DNA of 3,730 nt from Naegleria gruberi (Eukaryota), in NCBI GenBank assembly GCA_000004985.1, contig GG739212.1; one strand, 5' to 3'. The notes below the pieces were generated by a model, which saw only the letters and a list, made by a program, of their open reading frames with translations, had not been told where the DNA came from and made no database searches. The position numbers were made by a program, and so were the translations under genes. Below are positions 1 through 3,630 of this stretch, piece by piece; the stretch's first letter is position 1; each line of letters starts with the position of its first letter.

Positions 1-143
1 CCAATTGTTTACCGGCGTAGATGAGCCTTTGTTGTTCTGGTGGAATTCCTTCCTTATCTTGAACCTTTCTTTTAACATTTTCAATTGAATCGTTCTTCCA
101 ATGTGATAGTTTTACCAGTGAGTGTCTTGACAAATAATTGCAT
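1..143 (-). CDS. Ubiquitin-like protein, N-terminal part only (the gene runs off the window edge). The reading frame appears broken (+1 shift) near 92..95, so this is either a pseudogene or a sequence error.
   Basis: The minus-strand ATG is the reverse complement of 141..143. It translates as [16 protein letters not shown], 15/16 identical to the ubiquitin N-terminus [17 protein letters not shown] different frame, starting at about 94, translates as [31 protein letters not shown], which matches ubiquitin [31 protein letters not shown]. Only 4 nt (GAAC) lie between the Glu16 codon and the Asp21 codon, where ubiquitin has 12 nt. That leaves the two ubiquitin-matching segments out of frame, and the ATG frame reaches a TGA stop at about 81..83. 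Confidence 0.6.
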
Positions 144-555
144 GATTGGTTTGAACTGTTTTTTTCTTATTGTTGAAATTCAAACCTAAATCTTCCCACT
201 ATTTATGTGAATCTGCGGTTTTTGTGTATTTTTAGATAAAAGTTCTAGTTGAGCTTTGAACTAGTTTTGTTTCGCGACACAAATTTTGGAACTTGGGATA
301 TATTGTAATTTAAAAGCACAAAAGGTGAAAATTAGCATGTTAATATCGAATAACTAAATATATAGATTGTATTGCTTTCATATATTAGAACAACACTTTT
401 CACTTTGAGTTTTCTTTAAAATGTTTGTGGGTGTAATTATTGCTGATTATCTTGATATTTACTTGATAAATGTATTCAATTTTTTTACCATATCAACTAG
501 ACATTTTGGAGTGCCTTTTATGGCTTTTATATGTCTTAATAAAAAGAGCTCAAGT

Positions 556-571: not shown

Positions 572-652
572 TGCAGAAGGTGGGATTTGAACCCACGAAG
601 CTTGCGCAGTAGAACTTGAGTCTACCCCCTTTGACCACTCGGGAACCCCTGC
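572..652 (-). tRNA. tRNA-Leu, anticodon CAA, type II with a long variable arm and no intron.
   Basis: Reverse complement of 572..652: GCAGGGGTTCCCGAGTGGTCAAAGGGGGTAGACTCAAGTTCTACTGCGCAAGCTTCGTGGGTTCAAATCCCACCTTCTGCA. The 7-bp acceptor stem is GCAGGGG/CTTCTGC with two G-U pairs. The D-arm is CCC-GAGTGGTCAAA-GGG. The anticodon stem is GTAGA/TCTAC with loop CTCAAGT (U33, CAA, G37). There is a 12-nt variable arm with a short GC stem. The T-arm is GTGGG-TTCAAAT-CCCAC (GTTCAAATC consensus). The discriminator is A. Confidence 0.85.
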
Positions 653-684: not shown

Positions 685-1407
685 CTGAAATAAACTAATA
701 ATTCTATTTTCTTAAGTACACAACTACATACAGCTCGGGTAATAATTTTCTATTATTGATAAAAAGTTTAAGGTACCAATCTGCATGTTCACAAATCCCC
801 CATTCACAAACCATGGCTGGTAAGGAATGCAGCAATCATCTATGAACGAGGAAACCTACAGCGAAGCATGTTTCCAGTTCGATATCATGCTCAAGATATG
901 TGACTACAGAGTCTTCATCTTGGTTAACCTCAAAGGTCAGATTGACTCAAAAAAGTCGAGTTTATGTATTCCTACAGAAAAGATCCTGTAGAAGTACAGT
1001 CAATGGTTTTATCAATCTTGCATCCTCAATGATGTTATATTGGTTCTGAAAGTGTAAATTGTTATGAAGAAAAGTTATGGTTAAAAAATTGGGAAAAAAT
1101 TCAATAACAGATTCAAGAATATATTTGAAAGAATAAGGTTACCAGTCTGGCTTTCTTGGTGAATAAAGATGATAATATGAAAGTAAGTCAATTTGTCGAA
1201 GGACCTTCAGTGCAGTATTGGGGTTAGACAAGTGTTGTTCTAAAGATATGACATTTGTCATGGAAATTAACACTTGCTAGGTATGTGGTGAAGCAAATAT
1301 TTGAAGTCTCAAATCCAAAAATTGATCTTTTATTGATCAACCACAAGTATCTCTTTCTAACTAGATAAAATTCAAAGGTGATATATAGATGGTCACGTAG
1401 CAAGCTT

Positions 1408-1954: not shown

Positions 1955-2251
1955 ATGCCAGCTAGAAATACTTCTTCAAATACTTCTTCATCTTCCGAAG
2001 ATAGAATTCCAACAAAAACAGTCTGGTCAAGATCTAAACCAATTGATTTAACTAAAAGATTACCATTATTTGATATTGATACTTCAAATATTATAAGTGG
2101 AACCAGACATCGTAATAATATTGATTATCATCATGCAAATTTAAATGGTAAACAAATTTCAGTGAAAAGATCTTCGAAAAATTCAATTGAAAAGAGAGCT
2201 AAACAATCAACCACCACTACTAAGAGGATTACCAAATCGAAAAAGATGTAG
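1955..2251 (+). CDS. Hypothetical small protein of 98 aa. It is basic, Ser/Thr/Lys-rich, probably intrinsically disordered, and has a K/R-rich C-terminus that could act as a nuclear localisation signal. No family assignment was possible.
   Basis: ATG at 1955 lies in the context tcaaaATGc, preceded by an A-rich, G-poor leader. An in-frame TAA sits 18 nt upstream, so this is the first possible start. Codon usage is coherent and yeast-like (AGA Arg, TTA Leu, TCT/TCA Ser, CCA Pro, ACT/ACC Thr). Stop TAG is at 2249..2251, followed by an AT-rich 3' region with AATAAA-like motifs. Sequence: MPARNTSSNTSSSSEDRIPTKTVWSRSKPIDLTKRLPLFDIDTSNIISGTRHRNNIDYHHANLNGKQISVKRSSKNSIEKRAKQSTTTTKRITKSKKM. Confidence 0.55.
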   Translation: MPARNTSSNTSSSSEDRIPTKTVWSRSKPIDLTKRLPLFDIDTSNIISGTRHRNNIDYHHANLNGKQISVKRSSKNSIEKRAKQSTTTTKRITKSKKM

Positions 2252-2450
2252 ACTAATACTTGTAAATTATCCTAAATTTGTAAATAAAAAAAGAAGAGAA
2301 TTAAATATCCAGAAGAATCAGATCTTATTATTGTTCATAAATGAAGTTGCCCTACTGTCCAGAATGTGTTTGAGGCAGTAGTTCAGTTGATTATATAGAA
2401 ACTCTTTTCATTATTGTTGATTGTTTAAGATGTGAAGCATGTTCCAGTAT

Positions 2451-2470
2451 GGGAAGAAGGATAAATTACA
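2451..2470. repeat. Left arm of the 20-bp perfect inverted repeat.
   Basis: gggaagaaggataaattaca, matching the reverse complement of 2971..2990. Confidence 0.9.
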
Positions 2471-2970
2471 CTTTTTGGCCGTCTGGAACCCCCTCCTACC
2501 AACTGAGGGTGTTGTATGATTTTTTTTCATGATTTGTTATAGATAGAAGTTTATTAACAATACAAGTCTTTATTAGACCAAGAGAAAAACAGGGTGTTCA
2601 AAGTATCAATTACCACTTGTTCTTCTAGCAACAAGCACTTTCTGGGTTCTGAACAATGGCCAAGTGATTGGTGTTCGTTCGAACCTCACTTCAATGTACC
2701 AACAACTTCAAGTAAATGACAGATGTTGTTTTGGGTAGCCATGTGGAAGGAAGCAAAAGAACTTCTCCTCCGGTGGTATCAAGGTAGCGTGATGAAGGTT
2801 GTTATTTAGCAGGGTGGTGATGAAATCATGATGAGTAATTGTTGTTTGTTTTTTTTGTTGAATATTTAACGGTCATCTTGCAGCGGTTTTTGAAATCGAT
2901 TCTATTTTATTTATTATTTTTTAATTTTTATTTTAATAATTTGGCCAAGACCCCCTCTCCCCCTGCGTGC

Positions 2971-2990
2971 TGTAATTTATCCTTCTTCCC
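2971..2990. repeat. Right arm of the 20-bp perfect inverted repeat.
   Basis: tgtaatttatccttcttccc, which is the reverse complement of 2451..2470. Confidence 0.9.
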
Positions 2991-3166
2991 TATTTAAATT
3001 ACTTTGATTTATGAGAAGAGTTTAATATTTTGTGAATTGTACAACAGAGATTTATTTAAAACTGAATTGATTCAATCTACTATCATATAATTGTGGTTTT
3101 GTTCTTGATATTAGGAGTGCTGTGGATTTACAATTCTGCAAATACTGAGTGAGAGAAATAATTGTC

Positions 3167-3223
3167 AGCCCTCTTGAACTCTATTCTCAACTATTAATTG
3201 ATTAGGAAAAGTACAAGAGGGCT
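3167..3223. repeat. Hairpin-forming inverted repeat with a 10-bp GC-rich stem and a 37-nt loop.
   Basis: agccctcttg at 3167..3176 is the exact reverse complement of caagagggct at 3214..3223. A T-run (tttctttttttttt) follows about 45 nt downstream at 3269..3283. Confidence 0.5.
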
Positions 3224-3507
3224 CAATGAATCTATAATCATAATAGCTATAGTATTCATTGCAGTAGGTTTCTTTTTTTTTTAATTGAACAAGAGACAAT
3301 TTCACTCATTCAACCCACTTGCTATCTATTTATATTTTTGGAAAATGTAACTTTCATATTTTGAAGCTCACATCCATGCATTTACTTGTCATAAGCAATG
3401 CTCAATTTCATTGTTGTACAGGACATGTGTTTCTGTTGAACAAATATTTCAGGATTCAAATTAATGACTACCGGTACAATTATATTTCACAATTTGAGGA
3501 AGTGTAT

Positions 3508-3625
3508 GGCTACGGCCATATCACGATGAATGCACCTCATCCCGTCCGATTTGAGAAGTTAAGCATCGTCGAGCCACATCAGTACTGAGGTTGGAGACAA
3601 CTTGGGAACCTGTGGTGCTGTAGTC
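3508..3625 (+). rRNA. 5S ribosomal RNA gene, dispersed copy not linked to rDNA within this window.
   Basis: GGCTACGGCCATATCACGATGAATGCACCTCATCCCGTCCGATTTGAGAAGTTAAGCATCGTCGAGCCACATCAGTACTGAGGTTGGAGACAACTTGGGAACCTGTGGTGCTGTAGTC. The conserved 5S blocks are present: 5' GGCUACGGCCAUA, GCACC, CCCGUCCGAU, GUUAAGC, AGUAC (loop E), GGUUGGAGACAAC, UGGGAA, and the 3' GGUGCUGUAG. Helix I forms between GGCUACGGC and GCUGUAGUC. The total length of 118 nt is appropriate. Confidence 0.9.
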
Positions 3626-3630
3626 TTTTT
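3626..3630 (+). terminator. Pol III T5 terminator of the 5S gene.
   Basis: ttttt immediately after the 3' end of the 5S helix I. Confidence 0.7.

Follow-up and report, generated by a model that had tools for sequence, protein, structure and literature searches.

PIF/Harbinger transposons leave a 3-bp target-site duplication (TSD) with the consensus TWA (TAA or TTA), and En/Spm (CACTA) elements, whose TSD is also 3 bp long, are characterized by CACTA...TAGTG termini and by repeated motifs in their sub-terminal regions. With a content in transposable elements (TEs) of 0.13-0.28% in one survey (bioRxiv 10.64898/2026.06.24.734286), the genomes of Naegleria rank among the poorest in transposons of all eukaryotes surveyed (bioRxiv 10.64898/2026.06.24.734286; PMC6125883). 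In N. lovaniensis, RepeatMasker identified 2.17% interspersed repeats, the DNA elements including the CMC-EnSpm and piggyBac classes (PMC6125883). Kolobok elements of Naegleria are associated with a TTAA duplication and 5'-RR...YY-3' termini (PMC9587614), and MuDR, with its 9-bp duplication, was also reported from the genus (PMC3164196). Our literature searches found no report of a MITE, or of a Harbinger element, for Naegleria.

Here, we describe a 540-bp unit of Naegleria gruberi (positions 2451-2990) that we tentatively regard as a non-autonomous, MITE-like cut-and-paste DNA transposon with terminal inverted repeats (TIRs), an interpretation that we leave without superfamily assignment and to which we grant slightly less than an even chance. 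The window, that is, the whole stretch of DNA that was analysed, has a length of 3,730 nt and belongs to contig GG739212.1 of assembly GCA_000004985.1. It contains the following genes and landmarks:

1-145, minus strand: start of a ubiquitin-like gene (Pfam ubiquitin, 48 bits)
572-652, minus strand: tRNA-Leu(CAA) (ARAGORN and Rfam, 49 bits)
775-1003, minus strand: U3 snoRNA (Rfam, 76 bits)
1408-1865, no strand: run of 458 N, read from the sequence
1955-2251, plus strand: ORF with a CHZ histone-chaperone domain (Pfam, 25.6 bits)
3508-3626, plus strand: 5S rRNA (Rfam, 105 bits)

The unit is located in the AT-rich spacer of 1.26 kb that separates the CHZ-domain (histone-chaperone) gene from the 5S rRNA gene. 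The initial annotation, made from the letters alone, had assumed a yeast-like fungal host, which is wrong: the organism is a heterolobosean amoeba, and the neighbouring CHZ ORF is a Naegleria gene with about 90% identity to N. gruberi proteins. In a multiple alignment, this ORF exhibited 91% and 78% identity with two predicted proteins of N. gruberi and 71-92% identity with three proteins from environmental contigs.

The perfect 20-bp inverted repeat initially described around the 540-bp unit was confirmed, with two arms that are complementary at 20 of 20 positions, lie 500 nt apart and are each flanked by the same trinucleotide:

2448-2450, no strand: left flank TAT, putative TSD, read directly
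2451-2470, plus strand: left arm of the perfect 20-bp inverted repeat, GGGAAGAAGGATAAATTACA, with 16 purines out of 20
2971-2990, minus strand: right arm of the perfect 20-bp inverted repeat, TGTAATTTATCCTTCTTCCC
2991-2993, no strand: right flank TAT, putative TSD, read directly

All 20 arm pairs are of the Watson-Crick type, with zero G-U, and the termini of the element read GGGAAG...CTTCCC (5'-GG...CC-3'). As had been claimed, this symmetry is well beyond chance: none of 200 dinucleotide shuffles produced a match with three mismatches or fewer, none of 100 produced a 20/20 repeat, and our own estimate of the chance expectation for such a repeat is ~5e-5 per window, computed for 5.3e6 pairs of positions with a match probability of 0.28 per base. 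The abrupt stop noted at both outer edges was also borne out, T2450 being opposite T2991, and when the two 300-bp ends were aligned locally with gaps, no similarity was detected past the 20-bp arms.

Both flanks are indeed TAT. Identical 3-mers separated by 540 bp were observed at 2.0% of the window positions, for 2.3% expected from 3-mer frequencies, so that the TAT flanks are suggestive of a TSD and not a proof of it. If a 3-bp duplication is specified in advance, the TAT/TAT pair is enriched ~40-fold, a figure that becomes smaller if any length of 2-10 bp is allowed, and the pair can alternatively be parsed as a TA duplication with one extra base. As a putative TSD, the flanks are seen at one copy, from which site-to-site variation is not visible.

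Two other roles were considered for the arms and rejected. A promoter signal was suggested by the resemblance of AAATTACACTTT, in the left arm, to AATTTACACTTT, found at -58 to -47 of the U3 gene. Similarly, a poly(A)-type signal was suggested by the resemblance of the arm string TGTAATTTATCCT to TGTAAATTATCCT in the CHZ 3' UTR (12 of 13 positions), which is probably due to chance. With 11-12 matches over 12-13 positions, both pairs are of a type frequently seen in the window (E of ~3).

Inside the arms, each end of the unit carries a sub-terminal direct repeat:

2475-2495, plus strand: left repeat, TTGGCC-N7-ACCCCCTC, with looser similarity extending to ~2510
2941-2957, plus strand: right repeat, TTGGCC-N3-ACCCCCTC, followed by a second C5 run at 2959-2963

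These repeats, which had been pointed out from the sequence alone, are real: in the window, TTGGCC(N3-7)ACCCCCTC occurs only at these two positions, and it was found in 0 of 200 shuffles. The window has five C5 runs, three of which fall within the two sub-terminal ends. Because the motif is unique to the two ends, as are the sub-terminal repeats of many TIR transposons, it was counted in favour of the transposon interpretation. The interior had been described as free of ORFs, and the longest stop-free frame in the 540 bp is indeed 54 codons long. Of the traits of MITEs, a length below ~800 bp, a lack of coding capacity and TIRs are present in the 540-bp unit. A MITE is further defined by its presence at several or many loci with conserved ends, by polymorphic insertions or empty sites in orthologous DNA, and by an autonomous, transposase-encoding relative that shares its TIR.

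As in Tourist-like MITEs of the PIF/Harbinger type, the unit is small and non-coding, has TIRs of at least 14 bp with a G-rich start (GGG...), and would have inserted near genes in AT-rich DNA with a 3-bp TSD; however, the TWA consensus differs from TAT, so that the length of the duplication fits and its sequence fails. CMC-EnSpm elements, a class known in N. lovaniensis, share with the unit a 3-bp TSD, putative in the unit, and repeated sub-terminal motifs near both ends, but their CACTA...TAGTG termini contrast with GGG...CCC. The 5'-RR...YY-3' termini of Kolobok (PMC9587614), which is present in the genus, are compatible with those of the unit, yet the TTAA duplication is not found in its (G)TAT/TAT(T) flanks. 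More generally, the Naegleria superfamilies with a TTAA or a 9-bp TSD do not fit the unit. Two retroelement types were also rejected: a solo LTR, since the unit has neither TG...CA termini nor a 4-6-bp duplication, and DIRS, whose size and architecture are wrong.

The MITE classification of the initial annotation stands for the anatomy (TIR, 3-bp flanks, size, non-coding state and sub-terminal repeats) and falls for the yeast host, the SINE-like character and the fit to TWA or CACTA. SINEs have a head derived from tRNA, 5S or 7SL RNA, properly spaced A and B boxes and a 3' tail, and are devoid of TIRs. ARAGORN and Rfam found no tRNA-, 5S- or 7SL-derived head in the unit, its candidate boxes are about 10 nt apart and TIRs are present, all of which speak against the SINE-like label.

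If the unit is a transposon, it would have inserted into the AT-rich spacer between the CHZ-domain and 5S rRNA genes. A DDE-type transposase encoded elsewhere would bind the two 20-bp TIRs, and possibly also the sub-terminal TTGGCC...ACCCCCTC motif, before excising the element and reinserting it through a 3-bp staggered cut, the repair of which would duplicate TAT. In that case, the perfect identity of the arms would indicate either that the insertion is recent or that selection acts at the level of DNA and not of RNA. Mobility, a transposase partner and a superfamily are what we infer from a TIR, ends, flanks, a non-coding state and sub-terminal repeats that are read directly. Had such an insertion occurred, the empty site would read uninterrupted CCAGTATTTAAATT.

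A reasonable but unproven case for a MITE is made by the perfect and abruptly ending TIR, the identical flanks, the small size, the non-coding state and the sub-terminal repeats. With arms that are exclusively paired by Watson-Crick bonds, a constraint or a copying event at the DNA level fits better than an old RNA stem. A further point in favour is that DNA transposons (Kolobok, CMC-EnSpm, piggyBac and MuDR) are known from the genus. Against a transposon are the single known copy, the direct rather than inverted orientation of the sub-terminal repeats, a TAT flank and termini that are non-canonical for the superfamilies with a 3-bp TSD, and an interior GC island resembling the neighbouring RNA genes in a neighbourhood dense in such genes. 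The low TE content of Naegleria genomes also lowers the prior for this interpretation. In its present state, the candidate consists of one copy with a good anatomy and a putative movement.

No second copy of the unit occurs within the window. Searches for the exact TIR in JGI metagenomes revealed three single matches, without a second arm and in bacterial, archaeal-like coding and organellar contexts, a count close to the chance expectation for a 20-mer. The exact TIR had 0 matches in IMG/VR and 0 in GTDB genomes, and two interior 20/21-mers had 0 in IMG/VR. Since the JGI, IMG/VR and GTDB collections barely sample Naegleria, the outcome of these scans weighs little. The orthologous environmental contigs (L001-L003) end ~130 nt past the CHZ stop codon, before position 2451. 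Bacterial or vector contamination was rejected, blastn against plasmids and phages returning only a 44-nt chance match of 85% with Lactococcus plasmids.

At the protein level, the ORF at 2558-2716 matched two internally repetitive pseudo-proteins of a representative library, with best single HSPs of 28.9 and 20.8 bits; as the scores of these matches are sums of weak repeats, they were treated as chance. Six-frame pseudo-protein searches gave zero matches, but also missed a control, namely the C-terminus of the N. gruberi gene model P0004 (see below), which reaches 44.9 bits with E = 4.8e-6 at database size in a local phmmer search. Because this control escaped the concatenated six-frame query in the word-indexed protein search, the negative results of that search are uninformative.

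A TIR family with a 3-bp duplication, if confirmed, would represent a class of mobile DNA new to the genus Naegleria and would suggest that a transposase is, or was until recently, active. Were the unit instead to prove single-copy and conserved, attention would turn to its GC island as a possible RNA gene, so far unannotated, among clustered genes of the Pol III type. Either outcome, transposon or RNA gene, would be useful without being surprising to the specialist.

The interior of the unit differs in composition from its surroundings and contains several T-runs:

2472-2476, plus strand: T5 run directly after the left arm
2520-2527, plus strand: T8 run resembling a Pol III terminator
2585-2589, minus strand: T5 run at the low-coordinate edge of the GC island
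2586-2845, no strand: GC-rich island, with 41% GC as in the U3 gene (41%), compared with 29% in the intergenic DNA on either side
2849-2856, plus strand: T8 run at the high-coordinate edge of the GC island

Over its whole length, the unit has 37% GC, compared with 29% for the surrounding intergenic DNA. In sliding windows of 140 nt, the fold z-scores of the island ranged from -1.2 to -2.3 on the minus strand and were ~0 on the plus strand, and the corresponding values for the U3 gene, taken as a control, were -2 to -3.3 on the strand that encodes it. When 2583-2850 was folded in isolation, its minus strand had z = -2.16, 5 of 200 shuffles folding as well, and the plus strand of 2529-2858 had z = -0.76. 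The 20-bp stem forms in the predicted folds of both strands.

One T5 run ends the 5S gene and another begins 9 nt after the U3 gene, which makes such runs plausible Pol III terminators in the window. The Pol III-like motifs previously attributed to the interior are present, in the form of an A-box-like TGGCCAAGTGA at 2657, a palindromic GTTCGAAC core and the T8 runs, but they are weak; with only ~10 nt between the A-box-like string and the GTTCGAAC core, their geometry is not that of a tRNA-type promoter. As the T5 and T8 runs of the plus strand lie between the arms, a Pol III transcript cannot contain both arms. Together with the all-Watson-Crick stem, this arrangement argues for an origin of the symmetry at the DNA level and not at the RNA level.

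Known RNA families were searched for with Rfam 15 on the whole window, on 2300-3150 and on 2560-2880 (321 nt), with E values up to 10. The 5S (105 bits), U3 (76 bits) and tRNA (49 bits) genes were recovered as controls, and no credible match was obtained in 2300-3150 or 2560-2880: the best matches in the region of the element had E values of ~1.1-2.9 (at least 2.7 in 2300-3150) with unrelated bacterial or snoRNA models and were far below the gathering scores. Regular-expression scans identified no CR-I/CR-V of RNase P/MRP, no snRNA signature, no m1/m2 motif of U17, no telomere-template-like string and no SRP Alu-domain motif in its proper context. The 11-mer GGAAGGAAGCA at 2745 was considered as SRP helix 8 and rejected, as it forms a different local hairpin and has no match with an SRP model. 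Neither Rfam nor the motif scans thus provided a known RNA family that explains the inverted repeat, an origin that the initial annotation had envisaged as an alternative. The absence of a matching Rfam family and of hallmark motifs of RNase P/MRP, SRP and snRNAs was counted in favour of a transposon.

Several RNAs transcribed by Pol III have ends that pair over long distances, including RNase P/MRP (P1), SRP RNA (helix 5), vault and Y RNAs. The unit resembles them by this long-range pairing of its ends, by a GC-rich body in an AT-rich genome, by T-run terminators and by Pol III neighbours. Unlike these RNAs, it has no covariance-model match and no CR-I/CR-V, helix-8 or Alu-domain motifs, it has T-runs between its arms on the plus strand, and its perfect stem is devoid of G-U pairs.

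Two further inverted repeats were observed in the window. The first, at 378-401/1227-1251, is imperfect (22 of 25 positions, one gap; TCATAT-ATTAGAACAACACTTTTC) and has no matching flanks; its score of 33 exceeded that of all 300 shuffles (maximum 31). The second, at 1296-1324/2064-2092, extends over 29 nt with 79% identity and a core of 16/17, and its right arm is in the conserved coding sequence of CHZ. Overall, three or four inverted repeats of 16-17 nt were seen in the window, compared with 0.08-0.23 expected from dinucleotide shuffles. With one arm in the CHZ gene, the second repeat indicates that this genome yields inverted repeats of 16-17 nt beyond what dinucleotide shuffles predict.

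Of the other explanations, the one that survives best is a locus-specific, non-mobile cassette around an unannotated structured ncRNA gene or regulatory unit (island at ~2586-2845), which we hold to be unlikely while giving it real weight. Its RNA would possibly belong to a family absent from Rfam, be transcribed by Pol III and end at the T8 run (plus strand) or at the T5 run (minus strand), and the inverted repeat and TTGGCC...ACCCCCTC boxes would serve at its flanks in regulation or as boundaries, or form the terminal stem of a longer precursor. Such a cassette would agree with the U3-like GC content of the island, with T-runs that bracket it and also follow the 5S and U3 genes, with the large size of the spacer, and with a window dense in RNA genes (tRNA-Leu, U3 and 5S), two of which, tRNA-Leu and U3, are themselves bracketed by the weaker repeat at 378-401/1227-1251. 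The minus-strand folding follows a U3-like pattern, though a weaker one, and its z-scores are modest. The repeat at 378-401/1227-1251 may be an effect of k-mer composition, the comparable repeat at 1296-1324/2064-2092 having an arm in coding sequence. No credible Rfam match was found even for the 321-nt stretch, and class-defining motifs are absent. A 20-bp stem without G-U or mismatch is also unusual for an evolved RNA helix, the plus-strand T-runs prevent a Pol III transcript from spanning both arms, and the TAT/TAT flanks are left unexplained.

An inverted micro-duplication at the DNA level, arising without a transposase, appears distinctly less probable. It would be a relic of repair or template switching, or else consist of two recombination sites on either side of a segment that can invert. 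The TE-poor genome is in line with this origin, as are the perfect arms, which are the only inverted symmetry in a 300-bp end alignment that stops at 20 bp, and the direct, not inverted, arrangement of the other end motifs. However, the window has no recombinase gene, and we know of no mechanism by which 20-bp inverted copies with identical 3-bp flanks are cleanly and routinely produced at a distance of 500 bp, nor of any site-specific inversion system in Naegleria nuclear DNA; these points count against it.

It is improbable, in our judgement, that the unit is more than a dead MITE and carries, or is, a transcribed structured ncRNA of ~250-300 nt (island at 2586-2845) whose family is missing in Rfam. 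In one version of this proposal, the RNA would be a Pol III RNA specific to the Naegleria lineage, such as telomerase RNA, which, to our knowledge, has apparently not been identified in this lineage. Another version would be a TIR element mobilizing a small-RNA gene, which would fit the weaker repeat around tRNA-Leu and U3.

An assembly artefact, with the inverted repeat marking a mis-join, is very improbable: the scaffold is gapped, as illustrated by the 458-N run at 1408-1865, but no break in the sequence occurs at either arm, the interior is unique, with no reverse-complement counterpart in the window, and fold-back artefacts give long palindromes and not 20-bp arms. Finally, a chance repeat is effectively refuted, since AT-rich DNA with k-mer biases does exceed the shuffle prediction for inverted repeats of 16-17 nt, but the 20/20 match appeared in none of the 100-200 shuffles and has the very low expectation given above.

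Several observations concern the neighbouring genes. The ubiquitin-family gene start at 1-145 (minus strand) shows a frame break after ~16 codons, for which a short intron and a sequencing error are both conceivable. Downstream of the CHZ ORF, the frame at 2256-2378 (plus strand) matches the C-terminus of P0004 (residues 82-116) nearly residue for residue, which means that conservation between N. gruberi NEG-M and the window extends to position 2381 or beyond. This C-terminus corresponds to the CHZ 3' UTR translated in another frame, entered via a predicted intron, and P0004 appears to be mis-annotated. The same 3' UTR includes the motif ATCCTAAAT(T)TGTAAATAA (2261-2290), which is conserved in the environmental relatives L001-L003 and is likely the polyadenylation region. 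Upstream of the CHZ gene, the window is occupied by the N-run at 1408-1865, and at the equivalent position the environmental contigs L001 (90-160), L002 and L003 exhibit a conserved palindromic motif, GTGATGAGTGGAAAATCCAC...TCATCAC, that matches no family in Rfam.

Between the element and the 5S gene, a strong hairpin was found at 3154-3240, with arms at 3167-3180/3210-3223 that are complementary at 13 of 14 positions. Its match with an Rfam MIR396-like model is weak (E = 0.19; 23 bits for a cut-off of 80 bits). Fold z-scores for this hairpin were -5.4 (plus strand) and -6.2 (minus strand) in sliding windows, and -2.85 and -2.70 for a stretch of 111 nt.

Upstream of the U3 gene, a TATAA box is located at about -37 to -33, and a T5 run begins 9 nt past the 3' end of the gene. 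These signals suggest a Pol III-type U3 gene, as in plants.
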